Under the pieces are notes generated by a model. It saw only the letters and a program-made list of their open reading frames with translations, was not told the origin of the DNA and did no database searches. From Escherichia coli (lineage in GTDB: Bacteria; Pseudomonadota; Gammaproteobacteria; Enterobacterales; Enterobacteriaceae), in the NCBI RefSeq assembly GCF_044324785.1, contig NZ_CP172127.1: 64,000 bases of DNA; one strand, written 5' to 3'. The translations under genes and the position numbers were made by a program. This document shows positions 159 to 64,000 of the stretch, one piece after another (position 1 is the stretch's first letter; every line of letters starts with the position of its first letter).

Positions 159-238
159 ATAAAATGCGTTCAGTCCTGCGCTGGCGCAAAGTCTTGGTAA
201 ACGGCAATCGCTACGCTAGCTTTTTTTGAGGAGGAACG

Positions 239-478
239 ATGGACTCTATTCACGGTCATGAAGTGTTAAATATGATGATTGAATCAGGTGAGCAATATAC
301 GCATGCCAGTCTGGAAGCTGCGATTAAAGCGCGTTTTGGTGAACAGGCACGTTTTCACACTTGCTCGGCAGAAGGGATGACAGCGGGAGAGCTGGTAGCG
401 TTTCTGGCAGCAAAAGGCAAATTTATACCTTCGGAAGAAGGTTTTTCGACCGATCAGAGTAAGATTTGCCGTCACTGA
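239..478 (+). CDS. yecH: DUF2492-family protein YecH
   Basis: ORF track 239..478, 79 aa; sequence recognised as YecH; synteny next to ftnA. Confidence 0.85.
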   Translation: MDSIHGHEVLNMMIESGEQYTHASLEAAIKARFGEQARFHTCSAEGMTAGELVAFLAAKGKFIPSEEGFSTDQSKICRH

Positions 479-485
479 TTTGAAA

Positions 486-508
486 CGGCGGCAGTAAACC
501 TGCCGCCG
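486..508. terminator. GC-rich hairpin between convergent yecH and ftnA (9-bp stem cggcggcag / ctgccgccg)
   Basis: Inverted repeat read directly from the sequence; sits between two convergent stop codons. Confidence 0.5.
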
Positions 509-515
509 GAGAACA

Positions 516-1013
516 TTAGTTTTGTGTGTCGAGGGTGGAGAGTTCTTTGTCGATAAAATACAAACCTTCGCCGCTTTTGCCTGCCAGGCTTAATTTATCA
601 ATAATCGATTTGAACAGTTTCTCTTCTTCATGCTGCTCAGAAACATACCATTGCAGGAAATTAAATGTTGGGTAGTCCTGATTGGTCATTGCAGCATGAG
701 CCAGTTCGTTAATTTTCTGCGTGATTAATTGTTCGTGTTTATAGGTTTCCTGGAATAATTCATCAAGTGAGGAATATTCAGCAAACGGAGATTCAACGGT
801 ATTAATACGCGGTAAGTTGCCGGTATCAGTCAGATAATCAAACAGACGCTGCATATGCGTCATCTCTTCCTGGGCGTGGCGGCGCAGGAACGCGGCAGCA
901 CCTTCGAAGGTATGATAGCTGCACCAGGCGCTCATTTGCTGATAAAGCAGTGAAGAGTACAGTTCCAGGTTCATCTGCTCATTAAGTTTTTCAATCATTT
1001 CTGGTTTCAGCAT
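516..1013 (-). CDS. ftnA: Ferritin FtnA (iron storage)
   Basis: ORF track 516..1028; start trimmed to [13 protein letters not shown] (165 aa), ferritin-like sequence. Confidence 0.93.
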
Positions 1014-46586: not shown

Positions 46587-47909
46587 GTGCAACAGATAGC
46601 CCGCTCTGTCGCCCTGGCGTTTAATAATTTACCGCGACCACACCGCGTTATGTTGGGGTCGCTCACCGTTCTTACTCTGGCCGTCGCTGTCTGGCGGCCC
46701 TATGTTTATCACCGCGATGCCACGCCAATTGTCAAAACCATTGAGCTGGAACAGAACGAAATTCGTTCGCTCTTACCTGAAGCCAGTGAGCCGATTGATC
46801 AAGCTGCACAAGAAGATGAAGCCATTCCCCAGGATGAACTGGATGACAAAATCGCCGGTGAAGCGGGCGTGCATGAATATGTTGTTTCCACTGGCGATAC
46901 GCTAAGCAGCATTCTCAATCAGTATGGTATTGATATGGGTGATATCACCCAACTGGCTGCTGCCGACAAAGAATTGCGTAACCTGAAAATCGGTCAACAA
47001 CTCTCCTGGACATTAACCGCGGACGGCGAACTGCAGCGCCTCACTTGGGAAGTGTCTCGTCGTGAAACCCGAACCTATGACCGTACTGCCGCTAACGGTT
47101 TTAAAATGACCAGCGAAATGCAGCAAGGAGAGTGGGTTAACAATCTGCTGAAAGGTACCGTCGGGGGAAGCTTTGTTGCCAGCGCCAGAAACGCCGGTTT
47201 AACCAGCGCTGAAGTGAGCGCAGTGATTAAAGCCATGCAGTGGCAAATGGATTTCCGCAAACTGAAAAAAGGCGATGAATTTGCGGTGTTAATGTCACGA
47301 GAAATGCTTGATGGTAAACGTGAGCAAAGCCAGCTGCTGGGCGTACGTTTGCGTTCAGAAGGTAAAGATTATTACGCAATCCGCGCTGAAGATGGCAAAT
47401 TCTACGATCGTAACGGTACTGGTCTGGCGAAAGGATTCTTGCGATTCCCGACGGCGAAACAGTTCCGTATCTCGTCTAACTTTAACCCGCGTCGTACTAA
47501 TCCGGTGACTGGTCGTGTTGCGCCACACAGAGGTGTTGATTTCGCCATGCCACAGGGTACGCCGGTGCTTTCAGTGGGTGACGGTGAAGTGGTGGTTGCC
47601 AAACGCAGTGGCGCAGCAGGTTATTATGTGGCTATTCGTCATGGTCGCAGCTACACCACGCGTTATATGCACTTGCGCAAGATCCTGGTGAAACCGGGAC
47701 AGAAGGTGAAACGTGGCGACCGTATCGCGCTTTCCGGTAATACCGGACGTTCAACCGGGCCGCATCTGCACTATGAAGTATGGATAAACCAGCAGGCCGT
47801 AAACCCGCTGACGGCAAAACTGCCGCGTACCGAAGGGCTGACCGGCTCCGATCGTCGCGAATTCCTGGCGCAGGCCAAAGAGATTGTGCCGCAGCTACGG
47901 TTTGATTAA
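46587..47909 (+). CDS. mepM: Murein DD-endopeptidase MepM (LysM + M23 peptidase)
   Basis: ORF track 440 aa. Confidence 0.93.
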
Positions 47910-47924
47910 TTAACATCCATTCGC

Positions 47925-47956
47925 AGCCGGTACGCAGTCAGTACCGGCTTTTTTTA
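47925..47956 (+). terminator. Rho-independent terminator after mepM
   Basis: Stem agccggtac / gtaccggct followed by TTTTTTT. Confidence 0.8.
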
Positions 47957-48028
47957 TTTGGTGCGGGGCAAGTTGCGCCGCTACACTATCACCAGATTGA
48001 TTTTTGCCTTATCCGAAACTGGAAAAGC

Positions 48029-49000
48029 ATGGAAACGAAAAAAAATAATAGCGAATACATTCCTGAGTTTGATAAATCCTTTCGCCACACGCGCTACTGG
48101 GGAGCATGGCTGGGCGTAGCAGCGATGGCGGGTATCGCTTTAACGCCGCCAAAGTTTCGCGACCCCATTCTGGCACGGCTGGGACGTTTTGCCGGACGAC
48201 TGGGAAAAAGCTCACGCCGTCGTGCGTTAATCAATTTGTCGCTCTGCTTTCCAGAACGTAGTGAAGCTGAACGCGAAGCGATTGTTGATGAGATGTTTGC
48301 CACCGCGCCGCAAGCGATGGCAATGATGGCTGAGTTGGCAATACGCGGGCCGGAGAAAATTCAGCCGCGCGTTGACTGGCAAGGGCTGGAGATCATCGAA
48401 GAGATGCGACGTAATAACGAGAAAGTGATCTTTCTGGTGCCGCACGGTTGGGCCGTCGATATTCCCGCCATGCTGATGGCCTCGCAAGGGCAGAAAATGG
48501 CAGCGATGTTCCATAATCAGGGCAACCCGGTTTTTGATTATGTCTGGAACACGGTGCGTCGTCGTTTTGGCGGTCGTCTGCATGCGAGAAATGATGGTAT
48601 TAAACCATTCATCCAGTCGGTACGTCAGGGCTACTGGGGATATTATTTACCCGATCAGGATCATGGCCCAGAGCACAGCGAATTTGTTGATTTCTTTGCC
48701 ACCTATAAAGCGACGTTGCCCGCGATTGGTCGTTTGATGAAAGTGTGTCGTGCGCGCGTTGTACCGCTGTTTCCGATTTATGATGGCAAGACGCATCGCC
48801 TGACGATTCAGGTGCGCCCACCGATGGATGATCTGTTAGAGGCGGATGATCATACGATTGCGCGGCGGATGAATGAAGAAGTCGAGATTTTTGTTGGTCC
48901 GCGACCAGAACAATACACCTGGATATTAAAATTGCTGAAAACTCGCAAACCGGGCGAAATCCAACCGTATAAGCGCAAAGATCTTTATCCCATCAAATAA
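48029..49000 (+). CDS. lpxM: Lipid A myristoyltransferase LpxM (MsbB)
   Basis: ORF track 323 aa. Confidence 0.95.
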
Positions 49001-49090
49001 AAAAAGCCTCTCGCGAGGAGAGGCTTCCGCCGTGTGATAAGTTCAAGTTTGCTTCAGAAGATTCGAAATCTGTTGAACTATCATTGAACT

Positions 49091-49125
49091 GTAGGCCGGA
49101 TGAGGCGTTTTCGCCGCATCCGGCA
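49091..49125. repeat. REP element between convergent lpxM and pykA
   Basis: gtaggccggatgaggcgttttcgccgcatccggca, near-consensus REP. Confidence 0.7.
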
Positions 49126-49131
49126 ACGTAC

Positions 49132-50574
49132 TTACTCTACCGTTAAAATACGCGTGGTATTAGTAGAACCCACGGTACTCATCACGTCGCCCTGGGTGAC
49201 AATCACCAGGTCACCAGACATCAAGTAACCTTTATCGCGCAGCAGATTAACCGCTTCGCTGGCAGCTGCTACGCCGTCATTAGCGCTATCGAAGTGCACC
49301 GGCGTAACGCCGCGATAGAGAGCAGTCAGGTTCAGCGTACGTTCATGACGTGACATGGCGAAAATCGGCAGACCGGAGCTGATACGGGAGGTCATCAGCG
49401 CGGTACGACCCGATTCGGTCATGGTGATGATCGCCGTAACGCCTTTCAGGTGGTTAGCCGCGTACATTGCTGACATGGCAATAGCTTCTTCCACATTGTC
49501 GAACTGCACGTCCAGACGGTGTTTAGAAACGTTGATGCTCGGGATTTTTTCCGCACCCAGGCAAACGCGCGCCATGGCTGCAACAGTTTCTGAAGGATAC
49601 TGACCAGCAGCAGTTTCTGCGGACAGCATCACAGCGTCAGTACCATCCAGAACGGCGTTTGCTACGTCCATGACTTCTGCACGCGTCGGCATCGGGTTAG
49701 TAATCATTGACTCCATCATCTGGGTCGCCGTGATTACTGCGCGGTTAAGCTGACGCGCACGACGGATCAATGCTTTCTGAATGCCGACCAGTTCCGGATC
49801 GCCAATTTCCACACCGAGGTCGCCGCGAGCAACCATTACCACGTCAGAGGCGAGGATGATGTCATCCATTGCATCCTGGCTGCAAACGGCTTCCGCACGT
49901 TCAACCTTGGCAACAATTTTCGCATCACATCCTGCATCGCGTGCCAGCCGACGGGCATAGTTCAGATCTTCGCCGCAGCGTGGGAAGGAGACAGCCAGGT
50001 AATCTACGCCAATTAACGCCGCAGTCTTAATGTCTGCTTTGTCTTTTTCGGTCAGCGCTTCAGCCGACAAACCGCCGCCAAGTTTGTTGATACCTTTATT
50101 GTTGGAGAGGGGACCACCGACGGTCACTTCGGTGAACACTTTCATACCCTGAACTTCCAGTACTTTTAACTGAACGCGACCATCGTCCAGCAGCAGGATG
50201 TCACCAGGCACAACGTCAGCAGGCAGGCCTTTGTAGTCGATACCGACTTTTTCTTTGTCGCCTTCACCTTTACCCAGGTTGGCGTCGAGCAGGAATTTAT
50301 CCCCGATATTGAGGAAAACTTTGCCTTCTTTAAAGGTGGATACACGGATTTTGGGCCCCTGGAGGTCACCCAGAATAGCCACATGACGCCCCAGTTTTGC
50401 GGCAATCTCACGAACTTTATCCGCGCGCATTTTGTGATCTTCAGGCGAGCCGTGAGAAAAGTTCATACGTACAACGTTTGCACCCGCTGCGATAACTTTT
50501 TCAAGGTTATTATCGCGATCTGTTGCTGGGCCTAACGTGGTAACGATTTTTGTTCTGCGAAGCCTTCTGGACAT
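49132..50574 (-). CDS. pykA: Pyruvate kinase II PykA
   Basis: ORF track 49132..50715; start [19 protein letters not shown] at 50574 (480 aa). Confidence 0.95.
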
Positions 50575-50701
50575 GTAATACTCCGTTGACTGAAACAACC
50601 AGGTGTTGCTTGAACATGAAATCCGAATGAAATAACGCCGCGATGGCGATAAATTAATCTCATTCGGATGTCGTATAAGATTAGAACAGTGACAGTCGCT
50701 T

Positions 50702-51571
50702 TTAGCGATCGTCACTTAAATTAAGTAACTGCTTATCAAAACGCGATTCCTTCAGCGCTTCCTTGACCCGCTTCAAGTTATCTCTGAATTTTGCACCGCG
50801 TCGCAAAGTAAATCCTGTCGCCAGCACATCTATCACGGTCAGCTGTGCAAGTCGAGAAACCATGGGCATATAAATGTCAGTATCTTCCGGTACGTCGAGG
50901 GTAATTGCCAGCGTTGCTTCCCGGGCGAGCGGGGTACCCGCAGAGGTGAGGGCAATCACCATGGCGTCGTTTTCGCGAGCCAGCTGCGCCAGCTCGACCA
51001 GATTTTTTGTTCTTCCAGTGTGAGAAATCAGCACCACCACGTCTCCGTCGCTACAATTCATACAACTCATGCGTTGCAGCACGATATCATCGGAGTACAC
51101 CACCGGAACATTAAAACGAAAGAACTTATTCATCGCATCGTGGGCAACGGCGGCTGAAGAGCCTAATCCGAAAAAGGCGATTTTTTTTGCCTGAGTGAGC
51201 AAGTCGACGGCGCGGTTGATGGCAGATTTATCCAGTGAATGACGGACATGATCGAGCGTTGCCATTGCGGACTCAAATATTTTCCCCGTGTATGATTCAA
51301 CGCTGTCATCTTCATTGACGTTGCGATTAACATAGGGAGTGCCATTCGCCAGACTTTGTGCCAGATGAAGTTTAAAATCAGGAAAACCGCGCGTGTCCAT
51401 GCTGCGACAGAAACGATTCACCGTCGGTTCGCTAACATTGGCTTCCAGCGCCAGAGCAGCAATACTCGAATGGATCGCGTTATCGGGCGAAGCCAGAATG
51501 ACCTCGGCAACTTTGCGCTCTGATTTGCTCAAATGTTCCAGCTGAGACTGGATTTTTTCCAGCATATTCAT
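50702..51571 (-). CDS. hexR: RpiR-family transcriptional regulator HexR
   Basis: ORF track 289 aa; HTH + SIS domain. Confidence 0.93.
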
Positions 51572-51908
51572 GATGTAAAGAGACTCACGGGTAATGACGA
51601 TTTCCGCACTGAAAGAAATCGAAATGCAGTTTTGTCAGATATTACGCCTGTGTGCTGTGTTAATGACAAAAGCAGATAAAAAAGTTGTTATTTTTTTTCA
51701 TAACATGATCAGTGTCAGATTTTTACCCAATGGAAAACGATGATTTTTTTATCAGTTTTGCCGCACTTTGCGCGCTTTTACCGTAATCGCACGGGTGGAT
51801 AAGCGTTTACAGTTTTCGCAAGCTCGTAAAAGCAGTACAGTGCACCGTAAGAAAATTACAAGTATACCCTGGCTTAAGTACCGGGATAGTTAACTTAAGG
51901 AGAATGAC

Positions 51909-53384
51909 ATGGCGGTAACGCAAACAGCCCAGGCCTGTGACCTGGTCATTTTCGGCGCGAAAGGCGACCTTGCGCGTCGTAAATTGCTGCCTTCCCTGTA
52001 TCAACTGGAAAAAGCCGGTCAGCTCAACCCGGACACCCGGATTATCGGCGTAGGGCGTGCTGACTGGGATAAAGCGGCTTATACCAAAGTTGTCCGCGAG
52101 GCGCTCGAAACTTTCATGAAAGAAACCATTGATGAAGGTTTATGGGACACCCTGAGTGCACGTCTGGATTTTTGTAATCTCGATGTCAATGACACTGCTG
52201 CATTCAGCCGTCTCGGCGCGATGCTGGATCAAAAAAATCGTATCACCATTAACTACTTTGCCATGCCGCCCAGCACTTTTGGCGCAATTTGCAAAGGGCT
52301 TGGTGAGGCAAAACTGAATGCTAAACCGGCACGCGTAGTCATGGAGAAACCGCTGGGGACGTCGCTGGCGACCTCGCAGGAAATCAATGATCAGGTTGGC
52401 GAATACTTCGAGGAGTGCCAGGTTTACCGTATCGACCACTATCTTGGTAAAGAAACGGTGCTGAACCTGTTGGCGCTGCGTTTTGCTAACTCCCTGTTTG
52501 TGAATAACTGGGACAATCGCACCATTGATCATGTTGAGATTACCGTGGCAGAAGAAGTGGGGATCGAAGGGCGCTGGGGCTATTTTGATAAAGCCGGTCA
52601 GATGCGCGACATGATCCAGAACCACCTGCTGCAAATTCTTTGCATGATTGCGATGTCTCCGCCGTCTGACCTGAGTGCAGACAGCATCCGCGATGAAAAA
52701 GTGAAAGTACTGAAGTCTCTGCGCCGCATTGACCGCTCCAACGTGCGCGAAAAAACCGTACGCGGGCAATATACAGCGGGCTTCGCCCAGGGCAAAAAAG
52801 TGCCGGGATATCTGGAAGAAGAGGGCGCGAACAAGAGCAGCAATACAGAAACCTTCGTGGCGATCCGCGTCGACATTGATAACTGGCGCTGGGCCGGTGT
52901 GCCATTCTACCTGCGTACTGGTAAACGTCTGCCGACCAAATGTTCTGAAGTCGTGGTCTATTTCAAAACACCTGAACTGAATCTGTTTAAAGAGTCTTGG
53001 CAGGATCTGCCGCAGAATAAACTGACTATCCGTCTGCAACCTGATGAAGGCGTGGATATCCAGGTACTAAATAAAGTTCCTGGCCTTGACCATAAACATA
53101 ACCTGCAAATCACCAAGCTGGATCTGAGCTATTCAGAAACCTTTAATCAAACGCATCTGGCAGATGCCTATGAACGTCTGCTGCTGGAAACCATGCGTGG
53201 TATTCAGGCACTGTTCGTACGTCGCGATGAAGTGGAAGAAGCCTGGAAATGGGTAGACTCCATTACTGAAGCGTGGGCGATGGACAATGATGCGCCGAAA
53301 CCGTATCAGGCCGGAACCTGGGGACCCGTTGCCTCAGTGGCGATGATTACCCGTGATGGTCGTTCCTGGAATGAGTTTGAGTAA
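51909..53384 (+). CDS. zwf: Glucose-6-phosphate 1-dehydrogenase Zwf
   Basis: ORF track 491 aa. Confidence 0.97.
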
Positions 53385-53410
53385 TATCTGCGCTCATCCT
53401 TTATGGTTAT

Positions 53411-53424
53411 TTTACCGGTAACAT
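53411..53424. promoter_or_regulatory. Perfect palindrome TTACCGGTAA (possible GntR-type operator) downstream of zwf / upstream of edd
   Basis: tttaccggtaacat contains a 10-bp perfect palindrome; the edd-eda operon is gluconate/GntR controlled; operator assignment is from memory and unverified. Confidence 0.4.
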
Positions 53425-53463
53425 GATCTTGCACAGATTGTAGAACAATTTTTACACTTTCAG

Positions 53464-53497
53464 GCCTCGTGCGGATTCACCCACGAGGCTTTTTTTA
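53464..53497 (+). terminator. Rho-independent terminator after zwf
   Basis: Stem gcctcgtg / cacgaggc followed by TTTTTTT. Confidence 0.75.
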
Positions 53498-53618
53498 TTA
53501 CACTGACTGAAACGTTTTTGCCCTATGAGCTCCGGTTACAGGCGTTTCAGTCATAAATCCTCTGAATGAAACGCGTTGTGAATCATCCTGCTCTGACAAC
53601 TCAATTTCAGGAGCCTTT

Positions 53619-55430
53619 ATGAACCCACAATTGTTACGCGTAACAAATCGAATCATTGAACGTTCGCGCGAGACTCGCTCTGCTTATCTCGCCCGGATAG
53701 AACAAGCGAAAACTTCGACCGTTCATCGTTCGCAGTTGGCATGCGGTAACCTGGCACACGGTTTCGCTGCCTGCCAGCCAGAAGACAAAGCCTCTTTGAA
53801 AAGCATGTTGCGTAACAATATCGCCATCATCACCTCCTATAACGACATGCTCTCCGCTCACCAGCCTTATGAACACTATCCAGAAATCATTCGTAAAGCC
53901 CTGCATGAAGCAAATGCGGTTGGTCAGGTTGCGGGCGGTGTTCCGGCGATGTGTGATGGTGTCACCCAGGGGCAGGATGGAATGGAATTGTCGCTGTTAA
54001 GCCGCGAAGTGATTGCGATGTCTGCGGCGGTGGGGCTGTCCCATAACATGTTTGATGGTGCGCTGTTCCTCGGTGTGTGCGACAAGATTGTCCCGGGTCT
54101 GACGATGGCAGCCCTGTCGTTTGGGCATTTGCCTGCGGTGTTTGTGCCGTCTGGACCGATGGCAAGCGGTTTGCCAAATAAAGAAAAAGTGCGTATTCGC
54201 CAGCTTTATGCCGAAGGTAAAGTGGACCGCATGGCATTACTGGAGTCAGAGGCCGCGTCTTATCATGCGCCGGGAACATGTACTTTCTACGGTACTGCCA
54301 ACACCAACCAGATGGTGGTGGAGTTTATGGGGATGCAGTTGCCAGGCTCTTCTTTTGTTCATCCGGACTCTCCGCTGCGCGATGCTTTGACCGCTGCAGC
54401 TGCGCGCCAGGTTACGCGCATGACCGGTAATGGTAATGAATGGATGCCGATCGGTAAGATGATCGATGAGAAAGTGGTGGTGAACGGTATCGTTGCACTG
54501 CTGGCGACCGGTGGTTCCACTAACCACACAATGCACCTGGTGGCGATGGCACGCGCGGCCGGTATTCAGATTAACTGGGATGACTTCTCTGACCTTTCTG
54601 ATGTTGTACCGCTGATGGCACGTCTCTACCCGAACGGTCCGGCCGATATTAACCACTTCCAGGCGGCAGGTGGCGTACCGGTTCTGGTGCGTGAACTGCT
54701 CAAAGCAGGCCTGCTGCATGAAGATGTCAATACGGTGGCAGGCTTTGGTCTGTCTCGTTATACCCTTGAACCATGGCTGAATAATGGTGAACTGGACTGG
54801 CGGGAAGGGGCGGAAAAATCACTCGACAGCAATGTGATCGCTTCCTTCGAACAACCTTTCTCTCATCATGGTGGGACAAAAGTGTTAAGCGGTAACCTGG
54901 GCCGTGCGGTTATGAAAACCTCTGCCGTGCCGGTTGAGAACCAGGTGATTGAAGCGCCTGCGGTTGTTTTTGAAAGCCAGCATGACGTTATGCCGGCCTT
55001 TGAAGCGGGTTTGCTGGACCGCGATTGTGTCGTTGTTGTCCGTCATCAGGGGCCAAAAGCGAACGGAATGCCAGAATTACATAAACTCATGCCGCCACTT
55101 GGTGTATTATTGGACCGGTGTTTCAAAATTGCGTTAGTTACTGATGGACGACTCTCCGGCGCTTCAGGTAAAGTGCCGTCAGCTATCCACGTAACACCAG
55201 AAGCCTACGATGGCGGGCTGCTGGCAAAAGTGCGCGACGGGGACATCATTCGTGTGAATGGACAGACAGGCGAACTGACGCTGCTGGTAGACGAAGCGGA
55301 ACTGGCTGCTCGCGAACCACACATTCCTGACCTGAGCGCGTCACGCGTGGGAACAGGACGTGAATTATTCAGCGCCTTGCGTGAAAAACTGTCCGGTGCC
55401 GAACAGGGCGCAACCTGTATCACTTTTTAA
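53619..55430 (+). CDS. edd: Phosphogluconate dehydratase Edd (Entner-Doudoroff)
   Basis: ORF track 603 aa. Confidence 0.97.
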
Positions 55431-55466
55431 GACGACAAATTTGTAATCAGGCGAGAGAAAACTCTG

Positions 55467-56108
55467 ATGAAAAACTGGAAAACAAGTGCAGAATCAATCC
55501 TGACCACCGGCCCGGTTGTACCGGTTATCGTGGTAAAAAAACTGGAACACGCGGTGCCGATGGCAAAAGCGTTGGTTGCTGGTGGGGTGCGCGTTCTGGA
55601 AGTGACTCTGCGTACCGAGTGTGCAGTTGACGCTATCCGTGCTATCGCCAAAGAAGTGCCTGAAGCGATTGTGGGTGCCGGTACGGTGCTGAATCCACAG
55701 CAGCTGGCAGAAGTCACCGAAGCGGGTGCACAGTTCGCAATTAGCCCGGGGCTGACCGAGCCGCTGCTGAAGGCTGCTACCGAAGGGACTATTCCTCTGA
55801 TTCCGGGGATCAGCACTGTTTCCGAACTGATGCTGGGTATGGACTACGGTTTGAAAGAGTTCAAATTCTTCCCGGCTGAAGCTAACGGCGGTGTGAAAGC
55901 CCTGCAGGCGATCGCGGGTCCGTTCTCCCAGGTCCGTTTCTGCCCGACGGGTGGTATTTCTCCGGCTAACTACCGTGACTACCTGGCGCTGAAAAGCGTG
56001 CTGTGCATCGGTGGTTCCTGGCTGGTTCCGGCAGATGCGCTGGAAGCGGGCGATTACGACCGCATTACTAAGCTGGCGCGTGAAGCTGTAGAAGGCGCTA
56101 AGCTGTAA
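55467..56108 (+). CDS. eda: KHG/KDPG aldolase Eda
   Basis: ORF track 213 aa. Confidence 0.97.
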
Positions 56109-56113
56109 AAGTC

Positions 56114-56143
56114 AAAATGCCCGATCGAGGATCGGGCATTTTT
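56114..56143. terminator. Bidirectional rho-independent terminator between convergent eda and purT
   Basis: A-tract, stem atgcccgatc / gatcgggcat, T-tract. Confidence 0.8.
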
Positions 56144-56162
56144 GTAGCGTTTTTCGCCGGGG

Positions 56163-57341
56163 TTAAGCTTGTACTTTTATCTGTGCTGCGGCGTGCTTTG
56201 CGCGCTCAATCGCTTCATCAACACTCTCTGCAGTAGCCAGTGCCACCCCCAGACGACGGCTGCCATCAATTTCCGGCTTACCAAATAAACGAATCTGTAG
56301 GCCTGCGCCTACGGCATTCTGCACATTATCAAACGTGACATTCTGACTGGTCAGTTGTGGCAGGATAACGGCAGAAGCTGCAGGACCATACTGACGGATC
56401 CCGCCAACCGGAAGTCCGAGGAAGGCACGTACATGCAGGGCAAACTCCGAGAGATCCTGAGAAATTAACGTCACCATCCCGGTATCATGTGGGCGAGGGG
56501 AGACCTCACTGAAAATCACCTCATCACCACAGACAAACAGCTCGACACCAAACAGACCATAACCGCCCAGTGCCAGCACCACTTTACGGGCAATCTCTTG
56601 CGCACGCTCCAGAGCAAGCGGGCTCATTTGCTGTGGTTGCCAGGATTCACGGTAGTCGCCATCTTCCTGGCGATGACCTACCGGTGCACAGAAATGGACG
56701 CCATCCACCGCGCTGACGGTTAGCAGGGTAATTTCGAAGTCAAACTTAACGACGCCTTCAACAATTACGCGGCCCGCTCCGGCGCGACCGCCTTGCTGAG
56801 CGTACTCCCATGCCTGAGCAAGTTGCTCTGCAGAGCGAATAAACGTCTGCCCCTTGCCGGAGGAACTCATCACCGGTTTAACAATACAGGGGTAGCCAAT
56901 GGCGGCAACCGCCTCGCGGAAAAGGTTTTCGCTATCGGCAAAACGATAAGTGGAAGTGGGCAGCTGCAGCTCTTCTGCCGCCAGGCGACGAATACCCTCG
57001 CGATTCATCGTTAATTTCGTTGCGCGAGCGCAGGGGACAACATTCAGCCCTTCCTCTTCAAGTTGGATCAGCATATCGGTGGCAATAGCTTCGATCTCCG
57101 GCATGATATAATGTGGTTTTTCCAGTTCAACCACACGGCGTAATGCATCACCATCAAGCATATTAATGACATGGGAGCGATGCGCGACATGCATGGCTGG
57201 TGCGTCGGCATAGCGATCAACGGCAATCACTTCTACGCCGAGACGCTGACACTCGATTGCCACTTCTTTACCCAGTTCACCGGAGCCTAATAACATCACG
57301 CGAGTTGCTGCCGGACGCAGCGCAGTGCCTAATAACGTCAT
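56163..57341 (-). CDS. purT: Formate-dependent phosphoribosylglycinamide formyltransferase PurT
   Basis: ORF track 392 aa; ATP-grasp. Confidence 0.95.
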
Positions 57342-57378
57342 AACGAATATCCCCTGATTAATTCCGCGCGCAGTATAA

Positions 57379-57394
57379 ACGAAAACGTTTGCGC
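57379..57394. promoter_or_regulatory. PurR operator (PUR box) upstream of purT
   Basis: acgaaaacgtttgcgc matches the ACGCAAACGTTTTCGT-type palindrome. Confidence 0.7.
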
Positions 57395-57437
57395 GTGTCT
57401 TTATTGCTGATGTTGATTTCCCAACCGAAAAGAAATA

Positions 57438-57457
57438 TACTGTATAAAATCACAGTT
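57438..57457. promoter_or_regulatory. LexA (SOS) box upstream of yebG: CTGT-N8-ACAG
   Basis: tactgtataaaatcacagtt, 18 bp upstream of the yebG start. Confidence 0.8.
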
Positions 57458-57474
57458 ATTATGAGAGGCTGCAA

Positions 57475-57765
57475 ATGGCGGTTGAAGTTAAATACGTAGT
57501 CATTCGTGAGGGCGAAGAGAAAATGTCGTTTACCAGCAAAAAGGAAGCCGATGCTTATGACAAAATGCTTGATACGGCGGATCTGCTTGACACCTGGCTG
57601 ACAAATTCTCCAGTGCAAATGGAAGACGAGCAACGTGAAGCCCTTTCGCTATGGCTGGCAGAACAAAAAGATGTGCTGAGCACCATTCTGAAAACCGGCA
57701 AATTACCGTCCCCACAGGTCGTCGGTGCTGAATCCGAAGAGGAAGATGCCTCACACGCGGCCTGA
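57475..57765 (+). CDS. yebG: DNA damage-inducible protein YebG
   Basis: ORF track 96 aa. Confidence 0.92.
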   Translation: MAVEVKYVVIREGEEKMSFTSKKEADAYDKMLDTADLLDTWLTNSPVQMEDEQREALSLWLAEQKDVLSTILKTGKLPSPQVVGAESEEEDASHAA

Positions 57766-57783
57766 AGCAACTTGCGCTCCTGA

Positions 57784-58188
<405 letters not shown>

Positions 58189-58514
58189 TGGCCTCTGATA
58201 ATTCGATTGACCGTCGGCGGATGCGGCGCGAGTGCCTGGTCCGCCCTACAAGGCACCTCAATCGGAGGCCTGAGAAGACGCAACAGCGTCGCATCGGGCA
58301 ATCAGCATCAAACAATGCCACTCAAAACGTCAAATTACTTTCACCTAAAATACCCTTATCACCTGATATACAGTGAACACCTTACCTGGCGCGAATTTCT
58401 TTGAATAACGGCCTGCCGACCCGCTTATTTGCGCATCTTTTGTCTCGATATACATTTTCTGACATCCTCATCCGCTATGCTACAGGCACTAAAAATGGTT
58501 ATTGAGGAGCAAAT

Positions 58515-59174
58515 ATGGCTAACTGGTTAAATCAACTGCAATCCCTGCTTGGGCAAAGCAGTTCTTCTACCTCCTCGTCTGCGGATCAGGGATTGGGCAA
58601 ACTTTTAGTGCCTGGCGCATTAGGCGGACTGGCTGGGCTGCTGGTCGCAAATAAATCAGCACGTAAACTTCTTACGAAATATGGCACCAACGCGTTGCTG
58701 GTTGGCGGCGGAGCGGTAGCGGGTACGGTGCTGTGGAATAAATACAAAGATAAAATTCGCGCGGCGCATCAGGACGAACCGCAGTTTGGCGTGCAGAGTA
58801 CGCCGCTGGATGAGCGTACGAAACGTTTGATCCTTGCGCTGGTCTTTGCCGCTAAAAGTGATGGTCATATTGATGCCAAAGAACGTGCGGCAATCGACCA
58901 GCAATTGCGTGAAGCCGGCGTGGAAGAGCAGGGGCGTGTACTCATTGAGCAGGCAATCGAACAACCGCTGGATCCACAACGCCTGGCTACCGGGGTCCGC
59001 AATGAAGAAGAGGCGTTGGAAATCTATTTCCTGAGCTGCGCGGCTATTGATATTGACCATTTTATGGAACGCAGTTACCTGAATGCACTGGGTGACGCGC
59101 TGAAAATCCCGCAGGATGTTCGTGAAGGCATTGAACGCGATCTCGAACAGCAAAAACGCACTTTGGCGGAATAA
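58515..59174 (+). CDS. yebE: DUF533-family inner membrane protein YebE
   Basis: ORF track 219 aa. Confidence 0.9.
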
Positions 59175-59182
59175 TTCCGCTC

Positions 59183-59219
59183 TCTGGATAGCCTGAAGTT
59201 GACGATTTCGGGCTATCCA
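59183..59219. terminator. Hairpin immediately downstream of yebE (tctggatagcc ... ggctatccaga), no clear T-tract
   Basis: 11-bp inverted repeat read from sequence. Confidence 0.45.
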
Positions 59220-59280
59220 GAACCGCACAGCCATTTGAGCAGGCTGATTTTCTCTGTCTGCATAACATTCGATATCCGCG

Positions 59281-59500
59281 CCATTACCTGTCATCATGTG
59301 ACTGCTCCCCGCCCTGTCGGGCGAGGCTTCCCACTTCTTAAGCCGCAACCGTCTGTGTGACGGATTTACGCTGGCCTCCATGGGCAGAAACGACGAGTCC
59401 CGCCGCTTGTAATTCCAGTATGCCCTTGCGTTTGATGTTGAGCGCCGCGTTGATATCGCGGTCATGTTCAACTCCACACTCTGGACACTGCCAGATGCGC
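59281..59500 (-). ncRNA. Predicted TnpB guide RNA (omegaRNA / right-end RNA): scaffold overlapping the tnpB 3' end and right-end hairpin, guide from adjacent flank
   Basis: Inferred from the established architecture of TnpB systems (omegaRNA encoded at the tnpB 3' end through the IS right end); not directly visible as a gene; boundaries are approximate. Confidence 0.3.
59307..59326. repeat. Subterminal imperfect hairpin at the tnpB-proximal IS end (ccccgccc tgtc gggcgagg)
   Basis: 5-bp GC stem + mismatch + 2 bp; same motif and orientation as the hairpin at the other end. Confidence 0.7.
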
Positions 59501-60507
59501 TTATGTAATGGCATCTCCGACATTTTGTGACCGCAGCAGTGGCAGGTCTTCGAACTGGCGAACCATTGATCCAGTTTCACCAGATGCACACCTTTCTCTG
59601 TTGCTTTGTATTCCAGTTTTGTGATGAATCCAGACCATCCAGCATCGCCTATCGCACGAGCCAGATGGTGATTTTTCATCATATTTGCCGTTTTCAATGT
59701 CTCGACAATTACCGCTTGGTTTTCGTCAACAATTGCGCGAGATAACTTGTGCTGGAAATCGGCACGGGCACTAGCTACCCGTTCGTGAACGGCTGCAAGT
59801 TGTATTCTGGCTTTGCGCCTGTTTGCGCTCCCTTTTTTCTTACGGGACAGTGCTTTCTGCTTCCGGCGCAGGTTGCGACTTGCATTGATTAGGTGGCGGG
59901 GACTGGCAATTTTATTGCCGTCCGATTTGATGACAAAATGCGCCAGCCCCATATCCAGCCCTGTCACATTTGATATCAGTGCGGGCTTTGCCGGCGCTTC
60001 CATCCCGTCGTCACAGAGTAACGACGCGTAGTATTTCCCGGTTGCGCTGCGGCTCAACGTGATACTTTTCAGCATTCCCGTAATTTCACGATGTAAACGC
60101 GCTTCAATCGGCAAGATTTTCGGTATTTTTATCGCACCATCAAGGACTTTTATGCCAACACAATGATAGCTCGATTGTCTGCCGTGTTTACTTTTAAAGG
60201 TTGGTTTACCTGCTTTCAGTTTCGGATTGAAAAAGTTAGAAAAAGCCACGTCGAGGTTAATTACCGCCTGCTGCAACGCAATAGAATCATATTCTTTAAG
60301 CCATCCATACCGGCGGGATTTCTTCGCCACTGCAAGCAGTGGTTTGAGGTCTTTACGCGGGTTTAAATTTACGCGGTGCCGCTGGTAAGAATGTTTCTTG
60401 ATATGCAGAGCTTTGTTGTACGCAAAACGCACTGCACCGAACTGGGCGTTGATAAATTCAGCCTGTTCTGGTGTCGGGTAGATGCGTACTTTTGTTGCTC
60501 TTAACAT
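59338..60507 (-). CDS. tnpB: TnpB (IS605 OrfB-family RNA-guided endonuclease; RuvC-like + zinc finger)
   Basis: ORF track 389 aa; N-terminus MLRATKVRIYPTPEQ is classic TnpB; RuvC-I D in GLDMGL, RuvC-II E in VIVETL, zinc finger CHCCGH...CPECG, RuvC-III DRDINAALNI; ATG start. Confidence 0.92.
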   Translation of the reverse strand: MLRATKVRIYPTPEQAEFINAQFGAVRFAYNKALHIKKHSYQRHRVNLNPRKDLKPLLAVAKKSRRYGWLKEYDSIALQQAVINLDVAFSNFFNPKLKAGKPTFKSKHGRQSSYHCVGIKVLDGAIKIPKILPIEARLHREITGMLKSITLSRSATGKYYASLLCDDGMEAPAKPALISNVTGLDMGLAHFVIKSDGNKIASPRHLINASRNLRRKQKALSRKKKGSANRRKARIQLAAVHERVASARADFQHKLSRAIVDENQAVIVETLKTANMMKNHHLARAIGDAGWSGFITKLEYKATEKGVHLVKLDQWFASSKTCHCCGHKMSEMPLHKRIWQCPECGVEHDRDINAALNIKRKGILELQAAGLVVSAHGGQRKSVTQTVAA

Positions 60508-60529
60508 AATCAGCGCTCATTGATATAAT
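60501..60529 (+). promoter_or_regulatory. Putative sigma70 promoter for tnpA (-35 TTAACA at 60501..60506, 17-nt spacer, extended -10 TGaTATAAT at 60521..60529)
   Basis: Consensus -10 TATAAT with upstream TG; followed by SD aggtgg at 60549..60554 and a TTG start at 60564. Confidence 0.45.
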
Positions 60530-60535
60530 GCTTTT

Positions 60536-60563
60536 ATTTTAACACTTTAGGTGGATATATCAA
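60536..60563 (-). promoter_or_regulatory. Putative sigma70 promoter for tnpB (-35 TTGATA at 60558..60563, 16-nt spacer, -10 TAAAAT at 60536..60541, minus strand)
   Basis: Hexamers read from sequence; no experimental support. Confidence 0.4.
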
Positions 60564-60989
60564 TTGAGTAATCATGATGATTTACTGGCGGGATTTCTCC
60601 GCAAACGACACAGTGTCAGTAAGCTGGTTGTGCACCTTATTTTTACGACAAAGTATCGACGCAAACTATTCGACAGTCAGATGATCGCTCAGTTGCGTGA
60701 GGCTTTTGGCTCCGCTGCGGCAAAGCTTGAATGCGAAATTATTGAGATGGACGGGGAGCCAGACCATGTACACCTGCTGGTTGCCTACCCGCCAAAACTG
60801 GCGGTCAGTGTGATGGTCAATAATTTAAAATCGGTATCATCACGTTTGCTACGCCAGCAGAACGCGCATTTACGTATGCAGAGTAAAACGGGGCTTTTGT
60901 GGTCGAGATCGTACTTTGTCTGTAGCACCGGAGAGGCAACGATTGAAACGCTCAGAGCCTACGTTCAGAGTCAGTCAACACCTGATTGA
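60564..60989 (+). CDS. tnpA: TnpA (IS200-type Y1 HUH single-strand transposase)
   Basis: ORF track 141 aa; HUH motif HVHLL; C-terminal catalytic Tyr region SRSYFVCSTG; conserved TTKYRR; probable TTG start preceded by AGGTGG. Confidence 0.9.
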   Translation: MSNHDDLLAGFLRKRHSVSKLVVHLIFTTKYRRKLFDSQMIAQLREAFGSAAAKLECEIIEMDGEPDHVHLLVAYPPKLAVSVMVNNLKSVSSRLLRQQNAHLRMQSKTGLLWSRSYFVCSTGEATIETLRAYVQSQSTPD

Positions 60990-60994
60990 TCTTT

Positions 60995-61011
60995 AAAGCC
61001 CTGCGGGCTTT
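60995..61011 (+). terminator. Rho-independent terminator after tnpA (aaagccc tgc gggcttt + T)
   Basis: 7-bp stem, 3-nt loop, T-run; read from sequence. Confidence 0.6.
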
Positions 61012-61022
61012 TCGCCTTATAT

Positions 61023-61043
61023 CCCCGCCCGCATTGGGCGAGG
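61023..61043. repeat. Subterminal imperfect hairpin at the tnpA-proximal IS end (ccccgccc gcatt gggcgagg)
   Basis: Same stem sequence and mismatch position as the hairpin at 59307..59326. Confidence 0.7.
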
Positions 61044-61118
61044 GTTTACGGCGTTTTTCGCTAAGCAATGACTACCCTGTTTCGCTTGCATCTCCGGTGA
61101 GTTTTGCCACCCTTATAA

Positions 61119-63865
<2,747 letters not shown>

Positions 63866-63888
63866 GGCATGCTCCAGGCCGAAAAAGC

Positions 63889-64000
63889 CTAGCGTAATGG
63901 AATGATATCGCCTTGCCAACCCTGTGATGAACGCTGACCGACTAACAATAATGAACCACGATCGGCGCGAACGATGAGACGACCATGTTCATCCCATAGT
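63889..64000 (-). CDS. yobB: C-terminal fragment of an upstream ORF (probably yobB, C-N hydrolase family), truncated by the window end
   Basis: Minus-strand frame reads ...LWDEHGRLIVRADRGSLLLVGQRSSQGWQGDIIPLR then TAG (stop at 63889..63891); identity from K-12 synteny only. Confidence 0.35.
   Translation of the reverse strand, partial: LWDEHGRLIVRADRGSLLLVGQRSSQGWQGDIIPLR

Follow-up and report, generated by a model that had tools for sequence, protein, structure and literature searches.

ISEc46 between yebE and ptrB of Escherichia coli: anatomy of an intact, probably functional IS200/IS605-family element and its predicted omegaRNA

The closest described systems to the locus considered here are insertion sequences (IS) of the IS200/IS605 family: IS608 and IS605 of Helicobacter pylori, ISDra2 of Deinococcus radiodurans and ISEc46 of Escherichia coli itself. 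The genes of IS605 are divergent; those of IS608 are co-directional, as is tnpA of ISDra2. In IS608, the guide tetranucleotide AAAG reads the cleavage site TTAC by base pairing (PMC3201880). In ISDra2, cleavage by TnpB requires D191, the target site acts as transposon-associated motif (TAM) and the last ~16 nt of the RNA derive from the flank (PMC8612924). ISEc46 was tabulated in 2019 in E. coli ST38 strain 28Eco12 at 2191062..2192824, with a length of 1,763 bp and flanks TCAT/CTAA (PMC6963479). We analysed a stretch of 64,000 nucleotides from E. coli contig NZ_CP172127.1 (assembly GCF_044324785.1), hereafter the window. Between yebE (58515..59174) and ptrB (61146..63206) it carries an element that is very probably an intact copy of ISEc46, probably functional judging from its sequence, with an IS605-like divergent layout.

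The element contains two uninterrupted open reading frames, tnpB (59338..60507, minus strand, 389 aa) and tnpA (60564..60989, plus strand, 141 aa). Their places, lengths, strands and divergent arrangement as in IS605 are those given by the original prediction, which was made from the window sequence by a model. The prediction had also assigned them to the IS200/IS605 family, and this is borne out by both names and profiles. Megablast against 5,426 complete E. coli genomes retrieved near-identical copies (99.4-99.9%), labelled by RefSeq/PGAP as "IS200/IS605-like element ISEc46 family transposase", with the adjacent gene named "RNA-guided endonuclease InsQ/TnpB family protein". TnpA scored 141.8 bits with NCBIfam transpos_IS200 (cut-off 55) and matched Pfam Y1_Tnp with 6e-39. 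TnpB scored 342 bits with NCBIfam guided_TnpB (cut-off 100) and contains the Pfam domains OrfB_IS605, Cas12f1-like_TNB and HTH_OrfB_IS605. Since both NCBIfam scores far exceed their cut-offs, the element does not represent a chance pair of open reading frames.

The name ISEc46 is supported by the annotation of these near-identical copies and by the published 1,763-bp element with the same flanks. The 28Eco12 copy agrees with that in the window in length, in flanks and in the kind of site (intergenic, ~2.19 Mb), and nothing material distinguishes the window copy from the catalogued element. Its TnpA and TnpB are the most frequent database alleles: the exact TnpA sequence, named ISEc46 family transposase, was found on at least 1,000 contigs and the exact TnpB sequence on 967 contigs. 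Because the element is catalogued by standard annotation, common at this site and tabulated in the 2019 survey, both ISEc46 and its yebE-ptrB insertion were already known. As a catalogued element in a frequent, published lineage-marking position, it carries little weight as a discovery; the anatomy described below (TTAG target, guide/cleavage pairs and a covariation-backed RNA with pseudoknot) is rather a useful annotation.

To define the inserted DNA, the locus was compared base by base with that of a K-12 derivative, and copies at four other sites were compared as well. The K-12 derivative has a seamless empty site, ...CCTGTCATCAT^CTAAGCAATG..., with no bases gained or lost, in agreement with the prediction that K-12 has no IS at yebE-ptrB. 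On this basis the complete ISEc46 spans 59298..61060 (1,763 bp, minus strand), with its left end at 61060 and its right end at 59298. The limits proposed earlier, 59288..61062, were thus too wide by 10 bp and 2 bp, respectively. The tetranucleotide 5'-TTAG-3' (CTAA on the plus strand; 61061..61064) lies directly 5' of the left end and outside the element. It is already present in the empty site, and no target duplication was formed.

TTAG precedes the element at all five independent insertion sites in E. coli. The four others are tRNA-Arg/yfdC in strain GF3-3, a position near yfaY in strain L37, a 172-kb plasmid and a 5.8-kb plasmid, and the element measures 1,763 bp at each of them. Because TTAG precedes every copy on the tnpB-sense strand and the DNA past the opposite end is unrelated between sites, the tnpB-sense strand (minus strand of the window) is taken as the active "top" strand. 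The TTAG at 61061..61064 is thereby the predicted left cleavage site and, by analogy with ISDra2, the predicted TAM for TnpB.

Both ends carry subterminal imperfect hairpins that are alike in sequence and orientation and lie on the same strand. The left one, CCTCGCCC-AATGC-GGGCGGGG with an unpaired T (61023..61043, minus strand), was found by DNA folding. It is preceded at the 5' side of its foot by AAAC (61044..61047), and 17 nt separate this foot from the left cleavage site on its 5' side. The right one, CCTCGCCC-GACA-GGGCGGGG, likewise with an unpaired T (59307..59326, minus strand), was obtained by DNA folding, RNAalifold and pair counts. GAAG (59327..59330) is found 5' of its foot, and the right cleavage tetranucleotide TCAC (59298..59301) closes the element at a distance of 9 nt from the foot on its 3' side. 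From this arrangement one guide/cleavage pair can be read per end, AAAC/TTAG on the left and GAAG/TCAC on the right.

Comparison with the H. pylori elements shows that IS608 and IS605 share with ISEc46 the Y1 HUH (histidine-hydrophobic-histidine) residues, the subterminal imperfect hairpins and a tetranucleotide target 5' of the left end. In IS608 guide tetranucleotides are likewise located 5' of each hairpin foot, and AAAC/TTAG of ISEc46 is parallel to AAAG/TTAC of IS608 with the Watson-Crick position swapped on both sides. The right-end guide of IS608 is GAAT. The two elements differ in target (TTAC in IS608, TTAG in ISEc46), in the spacing between cleavage site and hairpin foot (19 nt versus 17 nt at the left end, 10 nt versus 9 nt at the right end) and in gene orientation, which is co-directional in IS608 and divergent in ISEc46. 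Their TnpA proteins match only distantly (E = 5e-19). ISEc46 shows the sequence features of IS200/IS605 elements: a Y1 HUH transposase, subterminal hairpins without terminal inverted repeats, a fixed tetranucleotide target and guide/cleavage complementarity.

We examined if the same ends also occur in related elements. A scan with one genome per species yielded 80 related loci (TnpB identity 63-99%) in Photorhabdus, Serratia, Rahnella, Idiomarina, Halomonas-group genera and others. The right terminus reads ...AGTCAC in 56 of 58 relatives, and similarity ends immediately after it; column entropy rises from 0.29 bits in the non-coding right end to 1.9 bits in the flank. Since many relatives lack tnpA and lengths therefore vary, left ends were compared by motif search and not in the MAFFT alignment of 70 loci. 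The pattern TTAG|C(A/G)AAA...CGCCGTAAAC[hairpin] was found in ~45 relatives from other genera. In the right-end hairpin, pair 153:173 is altered on both sides in 22 sequences.

Many relatives from Photorhabdus, Idiomarina, Aliidiomarina and the Halomonas group consist of tnpB and a conserved right end with no tnpA nearby, and look like non-autonomous derivatives. About half of these tnpB-only relatives also have a left-end hairpin preceded by TTAG. Some genomes contain multiple copies, at least nine in Photorhabdus thracensis and at least six in Idiomarina loihiensis. Two database records deserve a comment on their taxonomy. JAIJJM010000608.1 (1,960 bp, "MAG: Collinsella sp.") contains ISEc46 together with the yebE-side and ptrB-side flanks of the window (ATGATGACAGGTAATGGCGC..., ...GTCATTGCTTAG), and represents E. 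coli DNA wrongly assigned to an actinobacterial genome bin. A contig labelled Candidatus Paceibacterota carries a TnpB relative (88%) typical of Enterobacterales and may be mis-binned similarly.

Catalytic residues were located by alignment with proteins of solved structure. TnpA, a Y1 HUH single-strand DNA transposase by homology, has H68, H70 and Y133 aligned to H64, H66 and Y127 of IS608 TnpA, and Y133 also to Y132 of ISDra2 TnpA. The HUH motif (H68-V-H70) and the catalytic tyrosine are thus intact, as had been predicted. Y117 (in WSRSYF) was considered as an alternative catalytic tyrosine; the same alignments rule it out in favour of Y133, which lies in RAYVQSQ.

TnpB, an RNA-guided endonuclease by homology, shares 39% identity with ISDra2 TnpB across residues 4-380, that is nearly the full length (E = 3.6e-74; PDB 8bf8/8exa/8h1j). 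Its split RuvC triad D185/E269/D351 is aligned to D191/E278/D361 of ISDra2 TnpB, and four cysteines of a zinc finger (C322, C325, C341 and C344) lie between RuvC motifs II and III. RuvC motifs and zinc finger had been described as intact from the sequence, and this description holds. E278 and D361 of ISDra2 TnpB are catalytic. ISDra2 TnpB is known from biochemistry and ISEc46 TnpB from sequence; further differences are the co-directional tnpA of ISDra2 and its TAM, TTGAT, as opposed to TTAG predicted for ISEc46.

ISDra2 TnpB acts with an omegaRNA (reRNA), and we wondered if ISEc46 encodes a similar one. RNAalifold was applied to the last ~120 nt of 54 distinct relatives, and a short helix was added by hand, which makes the long-range pairing a pseudoknot. 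The resulting predicted scaffold comprises at least 109 nt (59298..59406, minus strand) and spans the 3' end of tnpB, its stop codon and the right end. Beginning from its 5' side, the model contains a first helix (59406-03/59393-90), the pseudoknot (59399-96/59303-00), located 2 nt from the element end, three further helices (59384-80/59334-30, 59377-70/59346-40 and 59363-59/59353-49) and the right-end hairpin (59326-19/59314-07), all on the minus strand. Four of six helices are wholly or partly within the tnpB coding sequence. Standard pairs occupy 98.5% of cells, versus 32-55% when partners are slid by 1-3 columns. Compensatory changes on both sides were observed at 12 pairs (111 cells), a level reached in none of 500 shuffles.

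As in ISDra2, the structured RNA overlaps the 3' end of tnpB as well as the right end and extends no further than the element boundary. We read this conserved structure as the probable omegaRNA scaffold. By the ISDra2 rule, the predicted 16-nt guide AUGAUGACAGGUAAUG would derive from flanking DNA 3' of the right end, outside the element (59282..59297, minus strand). In the K-12 empty allele AUGAUGACAGGUAAUG directly follows TTAG, so that the RNA would target the empty site or the donor joint. This is what the retention model for TnpB requires (PMC10055086).

Practical value of these predictions is modest. They offer a 4-nt TAM (TTAG) for a compact 389-aa TnpB at home in E. coli cytoplasm, and a covariation-supported omegaRNA model with a pseudoknot beside the guide. 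A literature search found no characterised TnpB with TTAG as TAM. Past the right end, a perfect 17-bp inverted repeat (59183..59221) is located just behind the yebE stop codon and is probably the yebE terminator. Read along the tnpB strand, it follows the right end at a distance of ~77-115 nt and could also end the tnpB/omegaRNA transcript. The only hit of Rfam in this region, mir-4662, falls on this terminator hairpin and is spurious (21.9 bits versus a gathering score of 97).

Taken by homology, these components suggest the following cycle, in which the activities of transposase, nuclease and RNA, as well as the TAM, are those we infer for ISEc46 from IS608 and ISDra2. A dimeric Y1 HUH TnpA would bind the subterminal hairpins of the single-stranded top strand (minus strand of the window). 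Cleavage would take place 3' of TTAG on the left, a site read by pairing with AAAC, and 3' of TCAC on the right, read by pairing with GAAG. The element would exit as a single-stranded circle, the donor being resealed without scar, and the circle would insert 3' of another TTAG with no target duplication ("peel and paste"). The tnpB transcript would give rise to an omegaRNA in which the tnpB 3' end and the right end are followed by ~16 nt of flank. Once bound to this RNA, TnpB would cut TTAG followed by ATGATGACAGGTAATG, that is the empty yebE-ptrB site or donor joint. Repair of the cut, excised chromosome from the sister copy would then restore the element.

What can be observed directly is consistent with an intact and probably functional ISEc46: its anatomy and catalytic residues, the rule that it inserts 3' of TTAG, the conservation of the RNA structure and the way the element is distributed in the population. 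Several points weigh against this reading. The tnpA start codon is TTG, which is also the start used by PGAP. TnpB stays below the cut-off of the narrow NCBIfam "exception" model NF038281 IS200_TnpB (383.1 versus 425 bits); this limits its name to the broader guided_TnpB level and has no bearing on family membership. No Rfam family matched the predicted RNA in a scan of 58400..61400 (E <= 1). In the searchable literature we found genome surveys listing ISEc46 and no functional work on its TnpA, TnpB or RNA. Constraint on tnpB is only moderate: among eight copies it shows 9 non-synonymous and 8 synonymous differences (tnpA 1 and 3, respectively). Two further points, low mobility and an unfavourable strand, are also the basis of the strongest alternative and are treated with it.

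According to this alternative, ISEc46 entered this site a single time, in an ancestor of lineages including ST38, and has since been inherited vertically as a fixed passenger, now effectively immobile here irrespective of what it encodes. A 120-bp probe across the yebE-side junction matched fully in 400 of the 5,426 genomes (~7%). The left end of the element was present in 449 genomes, at a median of one place per genome, and only ~49 of these lacked the junction. Since 400 of 449 left-end carriers have it, roughly nine in ten carriers harbour ISEc46 at yebE-ptrB, and mobility looks low. Copies at the same locus in strains MS14384 and KK05-19 are separated from that of the window by 9-10 differences. 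This divergence per kb is similar to that of the flanking core genes, which suggests that the yebE-ptrB insertion is old. The strand points in the same direction. The plus strand of the window has positive GC skew throughout (cumulative +1.29) and thus leading-strand sequence, so the active minus strand lies on the leading-strand template. In IS608 and ISDra2, the opposite strand orientation is reported to favour excision and insertion; the orientation found here, reported to disfavour excision, could contribute to the stability of the insertion.

Against an immobile passenger, each of the eight copies that were examined has retained intact open reading frames, ends and RNA structure. These copies occupy five sites, two of them on plasmids, have all 1,763 bp and carry 1-13 differences. 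None of their 27 variable sites falls in the non-coding terminal stretches 59298..59337 and 60990..61060. Recent movement of the family is indicated by the copies at four other sites, the 5.8-kb and 172-kb plasmids among them, whose identity exceeds 99%. Old age at one site is not in conflict with activity either, because TnpB-mediated retention predicts precisely such stability. The passenger explanation is therefore possible, and we hold it to be distinctly less probable than a functional ISEc46. The locus also provides a natural system for studying the donor-joint retention model in a native host, with ~400 occupied and ~5,000 empty alleles that carry a perfectly matching target.

Alternatively, the occupied allele might spread by homologous recombination of its flanks, possibly by TnpB-aided "homing", and not by transposition or pure descent. 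Comparison of the window (47150..64000) with strain N3 revealed a mosaic block, with 0-2 differences per kb over 58-62 kb and up to 17 per kb on either side. Over ~58.0-62.0 kb the two sequences differ at 2 positions, both inside the element, compared with as many as 17 per kb in the rest of 49-64 kb, a pattern that fits a shared tract centred on the element. Moreover, the predicted guide and TTAG match the empty allele exactly. This evidence, however, comes from one genome pair, E. coli often shows mosaic tracts of such a size with no nuclease involved, and shared ancestry of the segment would also fit. Spread by recombination is thus an unlikely explanation.

A bolder version of this explanation, which we consider quite improbable, is that yebE-ptrB::ISEc46 acts as a natural gene drive, its TnpB-omegaRNA targeting the empty allele of ~92% of strains. 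If so, the empty allele would be cut after DNA transfer and repaired from the occupied copy, and the element would spread within the resulting recombination tract. The footprint of such an event would then be the ~4 kb over which the window and N3 are nearly identical, within DNA that otherwise diverges by 0.5-1.7%.

Finally, it is hardly conceivable that tnpB encodes a domesticated, nuclease-dead regulator (TldR-like) or that the element is the K-12 type IS609 instead of an autonomous ISEc46, since nothing beyond general family resemblance speaks for either, the RuvC triad is intact, tnpB lies inside complete ends beside an intact tnpA, InsQ of K-12 is only 28% identical over 391 aligned positions, and megablast of the locus found no second match in the K-12 record. 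That K-12 carries another element elsewhere, called IS609 in the original prediction, is correct: it is located between ydcL and ydcO, belongs to the same family and has the same divergent layout, but consists of a tnpA pseudogene and insQ (402 aa).

Returning to the intact ISEc46, tnpA and tnpB are separated by a 56-bp spacer (60508..60563), in which consensus scanning detected putative back-to-back sigma-70-like promoters. P(tnpA), TTAACA-17-TATAAT (60501..60529, plus strand), and P(tnpB), TTGATA-16-TAAAAT (60563..60536, minus strand), both have an extended -10 TG; they are consensus matches only. No promoter was found by the scan in the empty yebE-ptrB intergenic region of K-12. Six of the 27 variable sites among the eight copies are in this spacer, ~10 times the density elsewhere. 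Positions 60553/60554 vary within a Shine-Dalgarno-like stretch of tnpA, which reads GGTGG in the window and N3 and GGTGA in most others. Such variation may represent tuning of expression. The window copy as a whole differs from the other copies at 2-10 positions, including 60554, with 10 differences from the GF3-3 copy.

Further, we examined occurrence of ISEc46 on plasmids. Full-length copies are rare (6 of 72,556 records). A remnant extending from the right end to the 3' two-thirds of tnpB (equivalent to 59298..60113) is found at ~357-380 places on E. coli plasmids. It keeps the whole predicted omegaRNA region and has no intact nuclease or transposase. In the sole copy read, on NZ_CP021734.1, the remnant is cut by IS1 and annotated as partial TnpB; another match is annotated "zinc ribbon domain-containing protein". 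One complete ISEc46 resides on pJNE070796_3 (5,831 bp), a ColE1-like mobilisable plasmid with mobA and rop, where it adjoins retron Se72 reverse transcriptase and effector. This plasmid is a possible vehicle for ISEc46 between strains. Relatives of ~79% identity are widespread on plasmids as well: a tnpB-side segment on E. coli plasmids, and a tnpA-side segment on several hundred Salmonella plasmids with its tnpB part annotated only as helix-turn-helix protein.

The remainder of the window was surveyed more coarsely. ISEc46 had been proposed as its only clearly accessory DNA, and at this resolution the proposal stands for the first 50,000 nt: at least 80% of 1-25000 and of 25001-50000 is covered in 5,352 and 4,790 of the 5,426 genomes, respectively. 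The best complete genome over 1-50000 is again N3. As its identity reaches only 98.9-99.1%, no near-clonal relative of the source strain is present among the 5,426 genomes. In MS14384, a different IS200/IS605-family tnpA is located between mepM and lpxM (237..695 of the stretch read); the window is without it, and the alignment breaks at ~47950. The segment 25001..50000 also includes a short sequence that is repeated in E. coli, with a median of 27 matching places per genome and at least 40 places in 1,488 records. It probably corresponds to repetitive extragenic palindrome (REP)-type repeats or tRNA.

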